Origin: Candidatus Aenigmatarchaeota archaeon
GTDB lineage: Archaea; Aenigmatarchaeota; Aenigmatarchaeia; PWEA01; JACQIF01
Assembly: GCA_016432325.1 (NCBI GenBank)
Contig: CP066684.1
Span: 448,001-512,000 of the forward strand
Direction of reading: 5' to 3'
DNA: 64,000 bases
Part shown: piece after piece, positions 1-13,569 of the stretch
Position numbering within the stretch: position 1 is the stretch's first letter
Layout: every line of letters starts with the position of its first letter
Notes under the pieces: model-generated
Told to the model about the DNA's origin: nothing
The model's database searches: none
Seen by the model: the letters and a program-made list of their open reading frames with translations, nothing else
Position numbers and translations under genes: made by a program

Positions 1-744
1 CTTTATGTCCGGCGATATGAAGTCCACGATGGTCCACGGGTTTCGCCTGAACTTGCGTATGGTAAGCGTGTTGCCTTTGGTCGATATGGGATAGAGCGTC
101 GCAGTGACGCGGTCTCCTGTGACGAGCATGGCGTCGTCCAGAAGGGGCCGCGCGATGTTTATCTCCTTGCCGAACCGGCTGGCTATCTTCTCGGCCAAAT
201 CGTCTATCGCCTTTTCCGTGGCTATCACTACGTTCGTAGTCAGCCAGCCGTACTTCCTGTGGTAAACCATCGCAGGCACGCCCGAAGAGTTCACGCAGAT
301 TTCCTCAAGGCTGTCGTCGTGCAGGAGCGGTTCCAGTTTGTCGAGCCCTATCATCTCCATGAGCAGCCGCACCGCGAGCATCTTCTTCTCGCGCGCGCCG
401 AGATTGGGCATCATAGTTTCGAGGATGTCGTAGGTCGTCGATTCGAAGCGCTCTTCCACGTTCCTGTATTCGTCTACGGTCGTGAACTTCAGGCTCGTGG
501 GCTTGAACCTCTTTATGAGCTGGGAGCGTATCTCGGCCTCTGTTCCGGGTCCCGTAGGCGTCAACGCCGGGTACTTCAGGATGTAGGAAGGGGTTGCGCG
601 CCCCTCCGTGCGGCTTATCTCGATTTCCATCGGCACGCCGCGAACGGCTATTGTATAGTTCTCGAAGACCTTTCCCGCGTGCGTCGTCCGTTCGTGCACG
701 TCTTCAAGCAGCCTGCCGATGATTTCCTGAGGAGCCTCGACCAT
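1..744 (-). CDS. Type IV pilus/Tad assembly ATPase (VirB11/GspE/CpaF family), N-terminal 248 codons, runs off the left edge
   Basis: Not in the ORF track. Manual translation from ATG 744: MVEAPQEIIGRLLEDV...EPLLHDDSLEEICVNS...YHRKYGWLTTN...VTGDRVTATLYPISTKGNTLTIRKFRRNPWT. Clear paralog of 40174..41748. Confidence 0.92.
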   Translation of the reverse strand, partial: MVEAPQEIIGRLLEDVHERTTHAGKVFENYTIAVRGVPMEIEISRTEGRATPSYILKYPALTPTGPGTEAEIRSQLIKRFKPTSLKFTTVDEYRNVEERFESTTYDILETMMPNLGAREKKMLAVRLLMEMIGLDKLEPLLHDDSLEEICVNSSGVPAMVYHRKYGWLTTNVVIATEKAIDDLAEKIASRFGKEINIARPLLDDAMLVTGDRVTATLYPISTKGNTLTIRKFRRNPWTIVDFISPDIK

Positions 745-787
745 AAGGGACCAAAAACACTTTATATTGGGCATTATATAAAACTAC

Positions 788-6501: not shown

Positions 6502-7914
6502 CTATCGCGCGCTCGTGTGCTCCTTGACTTCTTCCTTCTTGATTTCCTTGTCCTTGGACTGTCCGGCAGCGGCCAGCTTGCGCTGCATCTCTTCCTCCTC
6601 TTCCTTGTCGCCTTTCTTGGCCGAGGCCTTGTAGGCGAGCGCCTCCTTCTTCTCGGCTATCTTCACGTTCACGTCGGGGACCTGCTCCTGGTCCACGCGC
6701 TTCGTGGCTTCCTCGAAGTTCACGCCGAGGTCGTTGTACAGCCTGCGGACCTCGCCCACGAAGCGTCGCACGTATTCTGTCGTAAGCGCGATGTAACGTT
6801 CGGAGACGTCCTCGACCTTCTTCTCGTTCATCTTCTGCCTCATGAACAGCACGCCGTCCAGAACGTCCTCGTAGAACGGGTTCACGAGCTTCGGCTCGGT
6901 GAGATGCTTCTTGAACGCGCGCGGCAGTTCCTTCGGATCCTGCGGCAGCTTGTTCACGGCCTTCAAAGCCGCGACAGAGGCCTTTATCATCACTTCATAT
7001 GCGCGCTGGATGTCCGAACGCTTCCTGCGCACCTCGAGTTCGCGGAGTATCTTCTCCATCTCCGCGACGAACGCCTCCGCCTTCTCTATGTAAGGATCGA
7101 TCTTCGAACTCTCGACGTCCTTTATCTCGCGGTGCTCCACGGCCTTGCGGAACTTCACGACGTCGTCGAGATAGTCAGCGTACTTGGAGTCTATCAGGCC
7201 CGGCTCGACCAGATATTTCTTCATGTCGCCTGCCGCATGCATCGGGTGCGGAATGTCGCGACCCATGTACATCAGAACGGCCTCTTCCGCGCCTATCATG
7301 GCGAGATACAAATCTTCCGCGATGAGCCACAGTTTGGCGCTCTTGGCGCGCGAGATGCGCCTCGGAACGTCGCCCCATCTCCTCTGCGAGGCTTCGGGCG
7401 TGGCCGCTATCTCTCCCATCTCGAGAAGGCGCTTGTGCGTGAGGAAGAAGCCCGTATCGTACGTCGGCATGCCGTCCTTCATGAGCTCGTAAGCGAGAGG
7501 CGTGAACGCGCGGACCATCTTGACGAACTCCGTTATGGTCCACACGGGCTGCGACGCGATGCGCTCGTCCAGCTTGCGGCCCGTGTCGTATATCCAGTCG
7601 TCCATCTCCACGCGCTGCGCGTCCGTGAGCTTGTCGCGCGTGTCGTCGACGAGTATGACGAAGTCGAGATCGCTCTTCTTCTTGAACTCCCCGCGGACCG
7701 TCGAGCCCCAGACGATGACGGACTTTATCCACGGACCGTACTTGTCGAGAATCTTCTTGGTGAACTTCTTTGCCAGTTCGATGCGCTCCTGTCGCTGCCT
7801 CTCAAATTCGCGCTCGGCCTTGGTCATCTTCTTCTTGGCCTTGCCGCTCTCCGGAGATATGGGTTTCAGAGTCTCCTTCTTTGCGGACCGTTTAGAACCC
7901 TTCTTTGCCACCAT
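6502..7914 (-). CDS. Minimal nucleotidyltransferase fused to two HEPN-like helical domains
   Basis: Pol-beta motif VWGSTVRG...SDLDFVILVDD. HEPN RxxxxH (RKAVEH) in the first helical domain, degenerate in the second. Likely start MVAKKG. Confidence 0.85.
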   Translation of the reverse strand: MVAKKGSKRSAKKETLKPISPESGKAKKKMTKAEREFERQRQERIELAKKFTKKILDKYGPWIKSVIVWGSTVRGEFKKKSDLDFVILVDDTRDKLTDAQRVEMDDWIYDTGRKLDERIASQPVWTITEFVKMVRAFTPLAYELMKDGMPTYDTGFFLTHKRLLEMGEIAATPEASQRRWGDVPRRISRAKSAKLWLIAEDLYLAMIGAEEAVLMYMGRDIPHPMHAAGDMKKYLVEPGLIDSKYADYLDDVVKFRKAVEHREIKDVESSKIDPYIEKAEAFVAEMEKILRELEVRRKRSDIQRAYEVMIKASVAALKAVNKLPQDPKELPRAFKKHLTEPKLVNPFYEDVLDGVLFMRQKMNEKKVEDVSERYIALTTEYVRRFVGEVRRLYNDLGVNFEEATKRVDQEQVPDVNVKIAEKKEALAYKASAKKGDKEEEEEMQRKLAAAGQSKDKEIKKEEVKEHTSAR

Positions 7915-7978
7915 AATCACCGTGTCCTGCCTATCGTCAGAACGGTATCTATAAAAAGACCACTTCTGCGCGCCCAAC

Positions 7979-9832
7979 TTATCTAAATTCCTCTCTGGCC
8001 CACGTCTCAAGCTTCCTGGGACTCTTCTTCACCAGTTCGCCGGACATCCAGCCGTGCGCCAGTTCAGGGAACTCGAGAGTGCCCTCTATCGGCTTGAACA
8101 TGTTCCTCTCCATTATTCTCTTTTCCAGCTCGACCTCTGCGGGACCGAGGCCGAAAAACTCCGGAGGCAGTTCCTCGGGCGGTATCCTGGCGTCGAGCAT
8201 CTTGGCCATCGATTTGAGGGCTATGATAGTTTCTCCCCACCGCTGTTCCGGAGCGCGGCCGCCGCCCCACTCGTATGTCAGGTATCCTTTCTTGAAGCCG
8301 CGCTTGCGGAGCTCCCACAGAAGCTTGTACAGGTTCACGTCTCCCCGTTCGACAGGATGCATCAGGTGATTGACTCCGGGATGCGAATTGACGTCCGTGT
8401 TCACCACGAACTCTCCTATATCCAGAGGGAAGCTCTTGGCTTCGTCCCAGGGATCGTAGCCGTGCATGGCTATGTGCTCCCAGTCGATGGAAAGCCGTAT
8501 GTTCGGGTGGCCTATTACCTTTATCACGTGGTAGATGTGCGTCGGGCGCATGAGCCTGAACCTTCTCTGCCCCCTTCCTTCGCCCCCGCGGGCGTCAGGA
8601 TTTTCAAAGAGAATCATCACGCCTTCGCTGGAGAGCTTGTTCAGATACTTCTCGAAGTGGCCGCGTATGTAGGCGCCTGCGACAGCGTCCACCATTTTAA
8701 TCTGGTCGTCGCGGTGGCCTTCAATCAGCTTGTCCGGACTTGCGCTTCCGCATATCGTAGTCCACATCGGGTCCCCGCGGTCATACAGCCACCACGCCAC
8801 TATGCAATAGGCCATCCATTCGGTGATGTCTTCGTTGAAGTGGCCCTCTTCCAAGAGTTCGCCGTGCAGAAGCTCGTGGAACTTCTTGCGTATCTCTTCC
8901 TTGTCGTCCTTCTCGAGCCCTATCTTCTTCATCACGGCCTCGAGCGTGGGCTCCTTGTTCCCCGCGTACTGCAGTTCCCTTTGCGCCCTTCCGGAGAGCG
9001 TGCGCCACATGTCTTCAAGGTTGTAGTTGCGCGCGAACTCCGTGATGTAGTGTTTTTTGGCGCCGGCGCTTTTTTTCAGCGTCTCGTATATTCCTTTGCC
9101 GTCGGGGCCCAGATACCTCCGGTTTGACTTGTAGACTCCTTCGTGAATCTGCGGCTGAGGATAGACGGCTGCGTGGAAGTTGACGTAGAGGGCTTTCAGG
9201 TCCTTCACCATCTTTATGTATTCCTTCAGAGAGAGGTCCGCGTGTTCCCATATCTCCTTGTCCGCCTGCGTGAAATCGACAGTGACGTCTCCGTGTATCG
9301 CCCATTTCATTCCCTGCGCTTCTGAAAGGTGCTTCAAATCGTCCTTGTCCTTGGGCGTCAGGTGGTTGTAGCTCTCTATGTCTATGCGCATCACGTCGCA
9401 ACCCTTGCCGAGGTTGCTCGCGACTTCTTCTATGACTGTCGCGCGGTCGGCCGTGGGCAGGCCGGACGTGACGCCGACAAGGAAGTTCTTCGATTCTAAG
9501 CCATCCCACGCCTTCTTGCGCTCGATCGCAGGGATTGACGATTTTATCTGTTCGCGCACCTCGAAGAACTTGGAGACGTACTTCTCCAGCTTGCCCTTGA
9601 CTTTGAACTCCCGCTTCAGTTCGCTCACGGTCTTCTTGCCGAATATTACCTTGCCGTCCACGAGCACCACAGGAAACGCGTCCACCCCTTTCGTAAGCGC
9701 CATTGCTTCCTGACGCATCGACGGATACTTGTCAACGTCGTACTCTGTGAAGGAGACTCCGTTCTCTCTGAGAAAGTTCTTGACCTCTATCGAAAGACTG
9801 TCATCCTTGACGTATACGCGTACGACAGCCAT
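7979..9832 (-). CDS. Cys-less glutaredoxin-like domain fused to a xylose-isomerase/AP-endonuclease-2-like TIM barrel
   Basis: N-terminal Grx fold (KNFLRENGVSFTEYDV...FPVVLVDG). Barrel motifs AIHG, NFHA, LFENP, SIDWEH, TYEWG. Confidence 0.78.
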   Translation of the reverse strand: MAVVRVYVKDDSLSIEVKNFLRENGVSFTEYDVDKYPSMRQEAMALTKGVDAFPVVLVDGKVIFGKKTVSELKREFKVKGKLEKYVSKFFEVREQIKSSIPAIERKKAWDGLESKNFLVGVTSGLPTADRATVIEEVASNLGKGCDVMRIDIESYNHLTPKDKDDLKHLSEAQGMKWAIHGDVTVDFTQADKEIWEHADLSLKEYIKMVKDLKALYVNFHAAVYPQPQIHEGVYKSNRRYLGPDGKGIYETLKKSAGAKKHYITEFARNYNLEDMWRTLSGRAQRELQYAGNKEPTLEAVMKKIGLEKDDKEEIRKKFHELLHGELLEEGHFNEDITEWMAYCIVAWWLYDRGDPMWTTICGSASPDKLIEGHRDDQIKMVDAVAGAYIRGHFEKYLNKLSSEGVMILFENPDARGGEGRGQRRFRLMRPTHIYHVIKVIGHPNIRLSIDWEHIAMHGYDPWDEAKSFPLDIGEFVVNTDVNSHPGVNHLMHPVERGDVNLYKLLWELRKRGFKKGYLTYEWGGGRAPEQRWGETIIALKSMAKMLDARIPPEELPPEFFGLGPAEVELEKRIMERNMFKPIEGTLEFPELAHGWMSGELVKKSPRKLETWAREEFR

Positions 9833-9864
9833 TCGTCAATCTCCCCCATATCCAGCCATGCGCA

Positions 9865-11094
9865 TCACTCGCGTTCGAGCGGGTATCTCTGCAGCTTCAT
9901 CCCGCCGGTCATCTCCTTTATCGCGTCGTAGAGCGCTATCGTCTCCTCTTTGACGGTCTTCTCAAGGACGTCTTTGACAGTCGAACCTCCTGCCAACGAA
10001 CCTCTCAGATAGGTCTCTGCGGTTTTCGCCGATTCGGACGCGGCCTTGTGAAGCTTCCTGACGACCGTCTCTTCCTCCTCGGCCTCTTCCTTCGGCGCCT
10101 CCATCTCGCGCTCGCCGCGGAACTCCTCGAGGCTCTTCATCAGCGCGTCCTCCTTATCCTTTATCTCCTTCTTCTTCGCGATTATCTCGTCTGCGCTCTT
10201 CAGCGAACTGTCTATCGTTATCCGCATCCCCTCTATCTCCTTGCCGCGGTTGACGACCTGGTCCCTGCGTATCGATATTTCGATGTAGATGTAGAAGGGG
10301 TACGCCTCCTCGCCTTCCATGAAAGTGCGCGACTCCTGAATCATCTGCCTGCCTGGTATGAGAGCGCCCCTCCACGCCGCAAGATCGACGCCTGCGACGC
10401 TCGTCATGTAACCCTCTATCAGCATCGGGTTTGAAAGAAGATCCGCCGGAGCGTGCTCCGAAACCTTCATCTTGTGCATGGCGTCTATGTACGGCCTCAA
10501 CGATGCCTTGTAGTTCTCGAGAGACGCGTTTCGCGCGTTCAGTTCCTCCCGCAGGACGCGCACGCGTTCTTCGACGGCCTTGCTGAACGTATCGCGCCAC
10601 TGCTGGAACTGCTTCCACTTGATTTGCAGGATGCTCTTCTCGGACTTAGATATCTTCAGGTCGTCGATGTCGCGCTCGCTCTTTATCTTGAAGAAGTCGG
10701 CGACGATCGACGGGAACCTTCCCGCGCGCGCGAGCTGGAACATGCTGTTCGGGGACTGCATGTCTATGAAGTCCATGTAATCGGACTTGAGAACGTCGAG
10801 ATTGTTCTTCCTGTGGTGTTCCAGCGCGTTCTCGAACTTCCTCAGGTCGTGCTTCAGCAGCTCGAGCGCGTGCCTCTGCTCGCCTATGTAAATCATTATC
10901 TGCGCGAGGCGCCCTTCTGTCGCCTGACGGCGCTGCATCACTTCGGCGTGGTGCGCGGTCTTGGGGTTGATGTAGAGCCAGTCGTCGGTCTTTTTGACAG
11001 TATACCCGCGCTTCACCAGCCAGTCGAGCATCCCGAAGTAGGCCTGCTGCGTCGGTATGCCCAGCTCTGCCGTTACCTTGAGTTCCTTTTTCAT
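9865..11094 (-). CDS. Hypothetical coiled-coil protein
   Basis: 409-aa ORF with a GGAGG RBS and genome-typical codon use. Confidence 0.85.
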   Translation of the reverse strand: MKKELKVTAELGIPTQQAYFGMLDWLVKRGYTVKKTDDWLYINPKTAHHAEVMQRRQATEGRLAQIMIYIGEQRHALELLKHDLRKFENALEHHRKNNLDVLKSDYMDFIDMQSPNSMFQLARAGRFPSIVADFFKIKSERDIDDLKISKSEKSILQIKWKQFQQWRDTFSKAVEERVRVLREELNARNASLENYKASLRPYIDAMHKMKVSEHAPADLLSNPMLIEGYMTSVAGVDLAAWRGALIPGRQMIQESRTFMEGEEAYPFYIYIEISIRRDQVVNRGKEIEGMRITIDSSLKSADEIIAKKKEIKDKEDALMKSLEEFRGEREMEAPKEEAEEEETVVRKLHKAASESAKTAETYLRGSLAGGSTVKDVLEKTVKEETIALYDAIKEMTGGMKLQRYPLERE

Positions 11095-11146
11095 CGTTCG
11101 GCCTCCTGTCCAATTGGGTTCAGAACGATTTAAACGTTGGAGAGAA

Positions 11147-11641
11147 CTAATCCTTCTTGCCGCCGGCTATCCACCAGACTCCCAGCGCGATTATGACCAG
11201 GAAAAACGCCAGTCCGAGGCCTCCGCCGATACGGATGTTGTTCAGGCCTATCAGTTCAGGGCCTCCTGCTGCTATGAAGATTACGAGCGCTATCATTATG
11301 AAGACCGCGCCTGTCCATTTCGGGTGGGATTCCCAGATATGCTTGCCGCCGCCCTGCTTGATACCTGTCGCCTCGGCCATGATGAGTAGCGTCAGGACGG
11401 TCGCCACTATTACCATGAAGCCCAGCACGACTCCCTCCAAAAATGGGAAGAGCGTGCCGCCCAGAGGCAGCGCCAGGAAGCCCGCGAGCAGCGCGATCAT
11501 GCCTCGGATGGACTTGTCCTTGGGAACGCTCACGTGGTCGAGGATTCCGTAGACTATGGCAATGGCCAGGAGAAATGGGATTATGTAAGCGAATATGCCC
11601 GCGTCCGACAGAGCCTGCACGCCGCGTTCAACCAAAGCCAT
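11147..11641 (-). CDS. Multi-pass membrane protein (about 5 TM)
   Basis: IIPFLLAIAIVYGIL...IRGMIALLAG. Related to 11721..12242. Confidence 0.85.
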   Translation of the reverse strand: MALVERGVQALSDAGIFAYIIPFLLAIAIVYGILDHVSVPKDKSIRGMIALLAGFLALPLGGTLFPFLEGVVLGFMVIVATVLTLLIMAEATGIKQGGGKHIWESHPKWTGAVFIMIALVIFIAAGGPELIGLNNIRIGGGLGLAFFLVIIALGVWWIAGGKKD

Positions 11642-11720
11642 GGTATCACTTGACCCGGAATCTATATAAAACGCTATGTGTTTTGAAGTTCCCTCGCCGC
11701 TGGCGAAGGGAACTATATGC

Positions 11721-12242
11721 CTACTTGCCGCCCTTGCCGCTCCCCATGTACGCGTAATAGAGCATCTGGAAGATGAACAGGAGCGTCAGCAAAGTGATTG
11801 CGTTTCTCGTGCCTATCAGAGGCACCTCGAAGTCTCCCAGAAGACCGAAGCCGAAGGTCACCAGCATCAGAAGTATGATTCCGGCGCCGATTATAGTGAA
11901 GTGCGGATGCTCCTTGAGGTTCTCCGCGCCCTTGCCCCTCAGGCCGAATACTTCAAGCAGGAAGGTGAGTATGAACAGACCCACGAAAACCCATACCAAG
12001 GAGATGAAGTTCGCTTCGAAGAAGGCAACGAACGCGCGGTTGGCCGCGGCGAAGAACGCGAAGACCAGGGCGAGCAGGACGTTCACGCCGTTGTTCTGGA
12101 AGAGCGCGAAACTCTTGTTCTGCTTGCCGACCGTGGCGAGTATGCCGTAAACCGTCGCGAACGTGAAGAAGAGCGCGAGCCATTCGACAGGGACGCTTGG
12201 TATTCCAGTCGCGCTTCCAAAGAAGCCTGAAGTGTGGGACAT
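11721..12242 (-). CDS. Multi-pass membrane protein (about 5 TM), paralog of the neighbouring gene
   Basis: FATVYGIL...VNVLLALVFA. HP before TM4 in both paralogs. Confidence 0.85.
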   Translation of the reverse strand: MSHTSGFFGSATGIPSVPVEWLALFFTFATVYGILATVGKQNKSFALFQNNGVNVLLALVFAFFAAANRAFVAFFEANFISLVWVFVGLFILTFLLEVFGLRGKGAENLKEHPHFTIIGAGIILLMLVTFGFGLLGDFEVPLIGTRNAITLLTLLFIFQMLYYAYMGSGKGGK

Positions 12243-12244
12243 TG

Positions 12245-12886
12245 TCAGGCCTCCAGGTCGTCTATCTGGCGCTGAATATCGCGGACGAGCCGTTCCTGTT
12301 CGTCCAGCTGTCTTTCGAGGCTCCTCTTCCTTCTCGGATCAGTCGCCGCGTCATAGTCCCGACGCACTTCCACCGTCTTTTTCTGCTCTCTCTCCAGCCT
12401 CTTCTTCAGCTTCTCTACGTCCTTGCTCCTGTCCCTCTCCTCTTCCTGGTCCTCATGGCGCGACTTCAGCTTCTCCCCGAATTTCTGGCCGAGCTTGAAG
12501 CGGGCGCCGACATCGGCCGGATGCCAAATCCTCGTAAGGAAGAAGTACCCGAGACCGAAGGCTATCGTAGCCCACAGCCAGACGATGAGCCAGGACGCAA
12601 GGATTCCGTACCATCCCGAATAGACGAGCATGATGTAGACGGCCAGGCCGAAGAGCGTGCCCAGCGCCTTGTTCTCCTGGAATGTATGCATCCCCCGGCT
12701 TATGATATAGATGTAGATTAGCAGCACTATGTGCGGCACGAAGAACGCGAAGAGCAGGTCGTGCTGCGGGACGCCTGTTATGCAGCCGTACGTGTTCGTT
12801 CCGACACAGTCCGGTACCTTCAGCACTTGACGGAGAAGGATGTCTGCGATGTCGTTGCTTCCTGTTCCGAGGTTGTGGAAAGACAT
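12245..12886 (-). CDS. Membrane protein (3-4 TM) with a C-terminal coiled coil
   Basis: Hydrophobic helices followed by a charged heptad tail. Abuts the next gene. Confidence 0.85.
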   Translation of the reverse strand: MSFHNLGTGSNDIADILLRQVLKVPDCVGTNTYGCITGVPQHDLLFAFFVPHIVLLIYIYIISRGMHTFQENKALGTLFGLAVYIMLVYSGWYGILASWLIVWLWATIAFGLGYFFLTRIWHPADVGARFKLGQKFGEKLKSRHEDQEEERDRSKDVEKLKKRLEREQKKTVEVRRDYDAATDPRRKRSLERQLDEQERLVRDIQRQIDDLEA

Positions 12887-12929
12887 TGGACCACTTTTAA
12901 GACTGTTTTAATTGAAAAGAACAGAATAT

Positions 12930-12973
12930 AAAAAGATAAAGGGAGGGAACCGGGTTTAAAAAACGGTTCTCCT
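12930..12973 (-). terminator. Hairpin plus T-rich tract after the small-gene operon
   Basis: gaaccg/cggttc stem followed on the minus strand by tttatctttt. Confidence 0.4.
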
Positions 12974-13318
12974 CTAGGCGGGCGGCGGACGCAGAGCCGC
13001 AGGCCACCTTACGTGATAGTTGTCCACTACCGTGTTTGTGGCCGCGTTTCTTTCAAGTCCATCGTACACGAGTTGCGCATCCGGCAGTCGCTGAGCCAGC
13101 TGCTCCTCGAATCTCCTGCCGCTGTTGCCGGGATTGCGACTCGCCCATTCCCGAACAGCCGTTCTCTTCTCTTCTGGAGTCTGCACTCTTTGCAGAGCCT
13201 CCACGTAGAAAGGCTCGCGATTCTCTCTCGGCTGATCCGGAGGCAAATCTATCAAGTCCGTTTCCGCGTCAAACCGGCGCTCTGTGCGCGCTCTCCAATA
13301 CTGCAATACAGTTGTCAT
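12974..13318 (-). CDS. Hypothetical protein, 114 aa
   Basis: Starts 2 nt after the stop of 13321..13569, behind a GGAGG RBS. Confidence 0.7.
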   Translation of the reverse strand: MTTVLQYWRARTERRFDAETDLIDLPPDQPRENREPFYVEALQRVQTPEEKRTAVREWASRNPGNSGRRFEEQLAQRLPDAQLVYDGLERNAATNTVVDNYHVRWPAALRPPPA

Positions 13319-13320
13319 AT

Positions 13321-13569
13321 CTAGTGCTCCTCCTCTCCTTCGATCACGGAATCGCCTCGTGTTCCTCTGCTTCCGTAGCTGACTGTCCTGTGTCTGAAGG
13401 CATCGAATGCCCTGTTCGAATCCAACATCTCGCCAAGCCTTCTTCCTTCCTCAAGTCTTGCGCGGTCTGTTTGGTTTCTCGCTTGCCATGTCTGATAGGC
13501 AGTATAACCGAGCGCCAATACGCCTATTGTTATGGCGCCTCCGGCTACCGCACTTTCTACGTCTACCAT
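13321..13569 (-). CDS. Small membrane-anchored protein with a C-terminal FDAFRHRTVSYGSRGTRG motif
   Basis: N-terminal TM helix, GGGGTG RBS, motif shared with the upstream gene. Confidence 0.8.
   Translation of the reverse strand: MVDVESAVAGGAITIGVLALGYTAYQTWQARNQTDRARLEEGRRLGEMLDSNRAFDAFRHRTVSYGSRGTRGDSVIEGEEEH

Follow-up and report, generated by a model that had tools for sequence, protein, structure and literature searches.

Do six closely spaced genes on one strand belong to one system? This question is raised by a locus in a Candidatus Aenigmatarchaeota archaeon (contig CP066684.1, positions 448,001 to 512,000; this stretch of 64,000 nucleotides, which was analyzed as a whole, is referred to as the window), in which six open reading frames (ORFs) on the minus strand fill positions 6502-12886 with spacers of 2-87 bp. 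An earlier reading of the bare sequence (the original prediction) had described six co-oriented genes free of mobile-element signs and proposed that they constitute one machine. All six ORFs exist at these coordinates and in this orientation, the GC content is even across the block (0.55-0.58), and no mobile-element genes were seen in the region. Three of the genes encode the transmembrane (TM) proteins TMcc213, TM173 and TM164, here called the membrane module; the other three, here called the trio, encode the coiled-coil protein CC409, a glutaredoxin-TIM barrel protein (Grx-TIM) and the nucleotidyltransferase NT. The block is made up of two DPANN-wide core modules, parts of which are partly in print, and we put the probability at about three in four that these are independent, vertically inherited modules that were placed side by side in this genus by rearrangement.

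Distribution of the six genes among relatives

The relevant families were followed in approximately 140 DPANN genomes (61 Aenigmatarchaeia and 81 Nanoarchaeota). A CC409-family gene was found in 58 of the 61 Aenigmatarchaeia, and TM164, TM173 and TMcc213 in 57, 37 and 41 of them, respectively. In 18 of 20 loci retrieved from the genomes of relatives, including members of other families within the class, the genes of the trio are collinear, and a hidden Markov model (HMM) scan detected the trio in approximately 43 of 57 loci on public genome contigs, some of which are also among the 20. Near the CC409-family gene of these 20 loci, TM genes were detected only in a contig of the same genus. The HMM scan was also applied to 78 loci that each consist of a CC409-family or NT gene with 8-10 kb flanks, drawn from two overlapping fetched sets so that not all are independent; the families of the 5-TM proteins (c1) and of TMcc213 (c2) adjoin these genes in just two of them, the window and the same-genus contig. 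Elsewhere the TM cluster lies 163 kb from the CC409-family gene (genome G019), 26-33 kb from it (family f8), or on a different contig (genomes G004, G005, and G013). Each module keeps its own, different conserved partners in two phyla.

We observed the gene content of both modules, paralogy, the conservation of catalytic residues, and synteny in two phyla. According to the original prediction, these families recur together in DPANN genomes: all are indeed conserved, chromosomal and DPANN-recurrent, but all six occur together only in one genus. The scattered, not co-distributed orthologs that would have refuted the original prediction were found in part: the six are not co-located, yet each subset is co-distributed. 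The claim that the six genes form one system is contradicted by the finding that the modules adjoin only in the window and one same-genus contig. Their abutment is a matter of chance in one genus, and the juxtaposition and a cysteine-less glutaredoxin fusion are the only features specific to this genus. The block is not to be counted as a new system. Weighing against the two-module reading, the six genes are tightly spaced and co-oriented, so that read-through co-transcription across all of them is possible in this genus.

If the juxtaposition is not accidental, a pilus-type machine with the 5-TM/3-TM sub-complex might take up host nucleic acid as competence pili do, and the trio might serve in the cytoplasm to trim the strands taken up and add new tails to them for salvage. 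We regard this as very doubtful; if true, both DPANN-wide modules would be halves of one uptake-and-processing pathway underpinning the symbiotic lifestyle.

It is highly improbable that all six genes are one lineage-specific machine in which a host-contact membrane conduit is coupled to a nucleic-acid- or nucleotide-processing arm, and this proposal is largely refuted by the distribution. Co-orientation and short spacers, which are found both in this genome and in a same-genus metagenome-assembled genome (MAG), speak for such a machine, as does the DPANN-wide occurrence of both modules; against it stand the adjacency in one genus only, with the two modules on other contigs or 26-163 kb apart in the other relatives that have both, the different conserved neighbors of the two modules in two phyla and, weakly, a TATA-like box between the modules. 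Proximity between parts of both modules was seen in one other instance, a locus of a distant Aenigmatarchaeota lineage (L067:3413-10057) in which NT lies approximately 3 kb from a c1 gene and a TadC-like platform gene; it also favors the single machine. No CC409-family or TIM gene was detected nearby in that locus.

The membrane module and a pilus-type motor

By hydropathy, TM164 and TM173 have five TM helices each and TMcc213 has three followed by a charged helical tail, in agreement with the membrane proteins of the original prediction. TMcc213 starts with an amphipathic segment that carries a C...GC pair, and its tail is a charged coiled coil; in relatives, its orthologs always lie directly upstream of the 5-TM array. 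The TM173 subtype is always first in the c1 array, whereas the TM164 subtype, which has a nearly invariant A28-x3-G32 motif in TM1, is present in 1-4 tandem copies elsewhere. Two extra TM164-like genes are located in this genome at C1:184789-185867. The two 5-TM proteins had been called paralogs; this is not apparent by BLASTP (E 0.56, no match) but holds in a profile-profile comparison (hhalign probability 98%, E 2e-13, 144 columns).

Twenty TM-cluster neighborhoods were fetched and their ORFs clustered. The order kept throughout the class is c2 (3 TM plus coiled coil) followed by two to five c1 genes. The neighbors of this array are c3 (~250 aa, coiled coil), c6 (~130 aa, coiled coil), c4 (~750 aa, labeled T2SSE by Pfam), and c7 (~690 aa, 6-9 predicted TM helices, labeled T2SSF). 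The nearest solved relatives of c4 are the ATPases GspE2 of A. fulgidus (7e-28), CpaF (2e-15), and FlaI (4e-12), and c4 itself is near-universal and conserved to an unusual degree, being found in 59 of 61 Aenigmatarchaeia (50-83% identity) and 80 of 81 Nanoarchaeota (41-52%). The c1 family is present in 77 of the 81 Nanoarchaeota, again in tandem arrays. By a hand tally of listed coordinates, and therefore approximately, the array lies no more than ~3.5 kb from c4 in ~33 of the 55 Aenigmatarchaeia and ~42 of the 72 Nanoarchaeota for which positions of both were available (~60%).

From this context we infer that the proteins of the membrane module assemble as a hetero-oligomeric membrane sub-complex. 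It would work with a near-universal DPANN motor resembling those of type IV filaments, consisting of the GspE2/CpaF-type ATPase, the TadC/FlaJ-type platform and the two coiled-coil proteins, and the coiled coil of TMcc213 would be cytoplasmic. With odds somewhat better than even, the module serves as a platform-associated anchor, stator or conduit part of this surface machine, and the array is an undescribed membrane companion of a published pilus-like machine. The host-contact conduit of the original prediction survives to the extent that the membrane genes belong with a pilus-type surface machine; it does not form one system with the trio.

The published machine is known from a pair of loci resembling those of type IV pili, which encode CpaF, TadC, and coiled-coil proteins and are conserved across cluster-2 DPANN, Aenigmarchaeota included, with detection by proteomics in Ca. 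Nanohaloarchaeum antarcticus (Hamm et al., 2024, Nat Commun; PMC11291902). As judged by description, the genes that flank the array in relatives (those of the ATPase c4, the platform c7 and the coiled-coil proteins c3 and c6) agree with this account, as does their distribution over Aenigmarchaeota, Nanoarchaeota and Woesearchaeota. In contrast, the array of this genome is 350 kb from the motor locus, and the main text of Hamm et al. (2024) is without TM accessory proteins (the word 'transmembrane' occurs 0 times), which is why we consider c2 and the c1 array an undescribed companion. Archaeal type IV filament systems are scarce in DPANN according to a 2026 census based on arCOG models. Proteins with '5-TM' annotation (arCOG07126/arCOG11232) are members of the arCOG01314 putative secretion system (PMC5898192).

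Several observations weigh against a role in the motor. In this genome the array is missing from C1:103-111 kb, where c3, c6, c4, and c7 cluster; array and ATPase are likewise apart in family f4, which belongs to the same order; and in three Parvarchaeota-labeled loci the array is flanked by PolB, GlmS, ThiF, and LigT. Because the linkage is broken in these cases, the adjacency of array and ATPase could reflect old synteny instead of shared function. Furthermore, the array and the ATPase-platform pair always form separate, differently oriented transcription units. The AlphaFold2 model of TM164 is confident (predicted local distance difference test score, pLDDT, 84.5) and has no convincing fold relative: Foldseek gave no meaningful match (best E = 3) and VIA-align nothing informative (best Z 6.8). 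A transporter or channel role is conceivable for this reason.

Such a self-standing transporter or channel (e.g. small substrate-capture subunits or an ion channel), near the ATPase only through inherited gene order, appears rather unlikely to us. The small size of these polytopic paralogs (160-190 aa) and the small-x3-small motif in TM1 would suit it, as would the persistence of arrays without a nearby ATPase and their separate transcription units. However, the ATPase linkage is kept in ~60% of placed genomes in two phyla despite extensive rearrangement, and no transporter family or fold was matched. An identity resembling ECF S-components was considered for c1 on account of its size and TM1 motif, and was rejected as neither fold search listed such a structure.

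Other searches with the membrane proteins were negative. In the ESM Atlas, the matches of TM164 were unnamed archaeal clusters only, and a c1 profile run against 5.8 billion proteins retrieved homologs that were all annotated as 'hypothetical protein', without Pfam family. The proteins lack the class III signal peptide and single N-terminal helix of pilins and archaellins, having five (or three) TM helices along their whole length, and matched no pilin family in Pfam or NCBIfam.

Other filament-type genes are present in this genome and its relatives. An ordinary type IV pilus locus, distinct from those above, has its end at the window's left edge (positions 1-776, minus strand, and L099, G000:C1:432001-452000). 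It comprises genes for a T2SSE ATPase of 542 aa and for two half-platforms of the TadB/TadC-like kind (290 and 314 aa), several small ORFs in a row, and the gene of a DUF2341/MG2 surface protein of 1475 aa. In total, this genome has at least five clear T2SSE-family genes. In several relatives the CpaF/GspE2-type ATPase is an ORF of 1243-2007 aa (G022:C4:526572-530270, G032:C6:26934-32891, G039:C35:18856-24096, and G065:C14:45888-49601), in which the match to the 756-aa query is split around residues 496-550; this looks like an intein or other large insertion.

The trio and its possible substrates

In its model (pLDDT 74), CC409, the first protein of the trio, begins with an alpha/beta part, continues as a long antiparallel hairpin of helices and closes with a beta-sheet and helices at the C terminus, which bears out the coiled-coil protein of the original prediction. 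Its family has a conserved core in the alignment (E78, H82-D83-x-R85, D108, D111, P128, W166, and W241) and homologs in 33 of the 81 Nanoarchaeota sampled, and in many relatives the ORF overlaps the start of the TIM gene by 1-4 nt. The model found nothing at E<=0.001 with Foldseek against the PDB, no usable match in the ESM Atlas, and generic coiled-coil hairpins only in a wide VIA-align search (SMC, prefoldin, and ESCRT-III; Z 9-11, within the noise range of helical proteins). A match of the family profile to mitoribosomal mS35 in the PDB (E ~5e-5), over a charged helical stretch, was judged compositional.

In the second protein, Pfam recognizes AP_endonuc_2 and Glutaredoxin, as expected for the glutaredoxin-TIM barrel that had been predicted. 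Residues 1-80 have a glutaredoxin fold (PF00462, E 3e-10, residues 15-63) that is present only in this genus. The active-site position reads DSLS in place of CxxC or CxxS, and there is no cysteine within residues 1-80; because the domain is cysteine-less and confined to this genus, it is probably a structural or binding add-on and not a redox one. The remainder is an AP_endonuc_2 TIM barrel (PF01261, E 8e-15; the family was found in 18 of 20 orthologs), split by a large helical insertion. H180, H220, E410, D450, H453, and E521 are invariant in the family, and E338, E452, H480, and H491 nearly so. Profile matches were to MJ1311 (1.8e-8) and then to endonucleases IV (Endo IV), and HMMER aligns the family with T. 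maritima Endo IV at six positions (H, H, E, D, H, H), two of the stretches weakly; the spacing of H480, H491, and E521 suggests that they take the remaining ligand positions. Grx-TIM shares with Endo IV (Nfo) and M. jannaschii MJ1311 (PDB 2x7v, 3wqo) the AP_endonuc_2 barrel and the aligned His, His, Glu, Asp-x-x-His and His ligand positions. In contrast to the compact, single-domain Endo IV of ~285 aa, which acts on AP sites, the TIM proteins have 503-693 aa; the family is about twice as long as Endo IV and MJ1311, with a helical insertion of 170-300 residues, and differs from them further in being always in an operon with a nucleotidyltransferase and a coiled-coil protein, and in the glutaredoxin fusion in this genus.

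The third protein, NT, is a Pol-beta-type minimal nucleotidyltransferase (MNT; NTP_transf_2/Polbeta in Pfam) fused to two HEPN-like helical domains. The nucleotidyltransferase motif is intact, with G70-S71, D82-x-D84, and D90-D91 invariant in 18 orthologs, and the RxxxxH HEPN motif noted in the original prediction is present in the window protein as FRKAVEH (Rx4H). Across the orthologs, the HEPN RNase motif Rx4-6H is not kept as conserved catalytic residues: R is replaced by Y or H in family f5 and H by R in two orthologs, while K257 and E260 of the first HEPN-like domain are invariant. This pattern would suit a KNTase-type helper domain better than an RNase, and KNTase is the best PDB match of NT (3.5e-9).

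NT is found in 81 of the 81 Nanoarchaeota sampled. In some Aenigmatarchaeota families, an additional, short paralog of NT lies between NT and TIM, and Nanoarchaeota have a short NT (~270 aa) as well as an internally duplicated form (~620 aa). In the latter, an extra nucleotidyltransferase domain precedes the full NTase-HEPN-HEPN arrangement (L118:3472-5319, L119:3171-5039, and L120:2785-4593, all on the minus strand), which parallels the pairing of a short with a long NT, as separate genes, in some Aenigmatarchaeota families. The internal duplication and the short/long pairs suggest that NT may be an obligate (pseudo)heterodimer. A Pol-beta minimal nucleotidyltransferase followed by HEPN-type helical domain(s), and the suggested logic of dimers or paralog pairs, is shared with ANT(4')-Ia and type VII MntA/HepT. 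Unlike these, NT has two HEPN-like domains in one chain and is universal and single-locus in DPANN, with invariant K and E within an Rx4H motif that is itself not invariant.

Gene order is kept beyond the class. In 11 of 12 nanoarchaeal loci fetched, the order is the CC409-family gene, a ~195-aa protein (some genomes), a 620-700-aa AP_endonuc_2 protein and a short NT; the 620-700-aa proteins match AP_endonuc_2 in Pfam at E 1e-11 to 1e-14 and the Aenigmatarchaeota TIM family in hhalign (95.9%). The genes conserved next to the trio are for information processing: Trm1, TFB, L35Ae, aIF5A, ABCE1, an Obg-like GTPase, a KaiC-like ATPase, and YhbY. Outside this order, most Aenigmatarchaeota families encode, beside the CC409-family gene and divergent from it, two paralogous proteins of ~165 aa and one of ~90 aa, without Pfam family (L030:3274-4529, minus strand, and equivalents); the homolog of these genes in this genome is located 230 kb away (G000:C1:687350-687832).

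Two families of the trio appear to be in print already. Makarova, Wolf and Koonin (2019; PMC6393860) list the DPANN-specific cluster cls.004259 (NEQ050) as 'MNT fused to HEPN' and cls.004340 (NEQ484) as 'alpha helical protein', both in a house-keeping context. By description, not by sequence, NT corresponds to the former in architecture, context and DPANN-wide spread, and CC409 fits the latter. The excerpted part of that paper lists the families separately, with no operon with a TIM barrel mentioned there.

The trio is likely to be a cytoplasmic enzyme complex. Because of the gene context, its substrate is most likely a nucleic-acid end (RNA or DNA), and we tentatively propose, at less than even odds, that a metallo-phosphoesterase and a nucleotidyltransferase act on it in turn. 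The endonuclease-IV-like enzyme would open or clean the end, the MNT-HEPN nucleotidyltransferase would then add a nucleotide, and CC409 would be the scaffold for both. A canonical CCA-adding enzyme and a compact AP_endonuc_2 protein (C1:193.9 kb) are encoded elsewhere in the genome; for this reason the trio was ruled out as the CCA enzyme or the sole AP endonuclease, and its enzymes are additional, not replacements. Weighing against the nucleic-acid substrate, AP_endonuc_2 also includes sugar isomerases and epimerases, KNTase-type enzymes modify small molecules, and the basis of the proposal is confined to the ligand pattern and the gene context.

The trio could instead act on a small molecule or an envelope component, with the TIM barrel as a sugar/polyol isomerase or phosphodiesterase and the KNTase-like enzyme nucleotidylylating its product or transferring a phospho-group to it. 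Besides the many sugar isomerases and epimerases, AP_endonuc_2 holds the CbiR phosphodiesterase, to which there is a weak match, as there is to tagatose/psicose epimerases (E 0.4-0.7). The best PDB relatives of NT, moreover, are aminoglycoside nucleotidyltransferases, and its invariant HEPN-like residues are K257 and E260, not the R and H of RNases. We nevertheless find this unlikely, as, MJ1311 apart, the top profile matches of the TIM barrel are endonucleases IV, whose typical His-His pair it retains, and the conserved neighbors serve translation and RNA functions rather than envelope or sugar functions.

That NT is a fused MNT-HEPN toxin-antitoxin or defense module (type VII HepT/MntA-like) with unrelated neighbors is barely credible: it has both domains, Rx4H in the window protein and a weak NCBIfam MntA match (4e-5, far below cut-off), but its presence in all 81 Nanoarchaeota and its collinearity with TIM and CC409 in two phyla are not the patchy distribution of a mobile module, some families have other residues in place of the R and H of the motif, and the excerpted part of Makarova et al. 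(2019) remarks on the housekeeping context and on a conservation unlike that of a toxin-antitoxin module.

Gene coordinates, genome context and significance

The source genome is a single contig of 874,869 bp and is 90% complete. Its closest public relatives are named Candidatus Aenigmatarchaeota, the same-genus MAG is of groundwater origin, and the sequencing runs that hold the stretch are four DNA runs of one groundwater study, with no RNA run among those listed. The features of the block are collected in Table 1. Pfam gave nothing for CC409, TM164, TM173, and TMcc213, and an NCBIfam scan gave no match above cut-off for the block proteins.

Table 1. Genes and putative signals of the six-gene block, in window coordinates.
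Feature	Position	Strand	Description	Basis
TMcc213 (family c2)	12245..12886	-	213 aa; first gene of membrane module	hydropathy, alignment of 18 orthologs
TM173 (c1 family, first-in-array subtype)	11721..12242	-	173 aa	hydropathy
TM164 (main c1 subtype)	11147..11641	-	164 aa	hydropathy
CC409 coiled-coil hairpin protein	9865..11094	-	409 aa; first gene of trio	alignment, model
Grx-TIM	7979..9832	-		Pfam; HMMER alignments to T. maritima Endo IV and MJ1311
NT (MNT-HEPN nucleotidyltransferase)	6502..7914	-	470 aa from likeliest start; longest ORF up to 8010	Pfam
TTTAAAT TATA-like box	11128..11134	-	~37 nt upstream of CC409 ATG	by eye, consensus match only
GGAGG	11102-11106	-	upstream of CC409 ATG	by eye
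AT-rich spacer upstream of TMcc213	12887..12973	-	87 bp; 6-bp inverted repeat GAACCG/CGGTTC, T-run, TATA-like boxes	by eye

For NT, the ATG at 7914 is favored over the start at 8010 because ortholog alignments begin at approximately residues 31-80 of the longest ORF. The TTTAAAT box lies in the 52-bp spacer upstream of CC409 and may be a candidate internal promoter that splits the two modules, and the AT-rich spacer is the probable start of the membrane-module transcript. The motifs of these spacers are consistent with two promoters; as matches made by eye, they are no proof of them. Upstream of the membrane module, at 12974-13569 on the minus strand, are two small genes (114 and 82 aa) of no family, which are kept only in the same-genus MAG (46% and ~40% identity); other lineages carry different genes there.

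DPANN archaea are dependent on host cells, which raises the questions of how they attach to them and exchange material, and which of their few lineage-specific core genes matter. Both modules are near-universal, slowly evolving and uncharacterized in at least two DPANN phyla, and we infer their complex formation, substrates and roles from the genes. The membrane module would add membrane subunits to a pilus-like machine proposed for host contact. Through the trio, the MNT-HEPN protein long noted in DPANN is linked with an endonuclease-IV-like enzyme and a putative scaffold, which leads to a concrete biochemical hypothesis.

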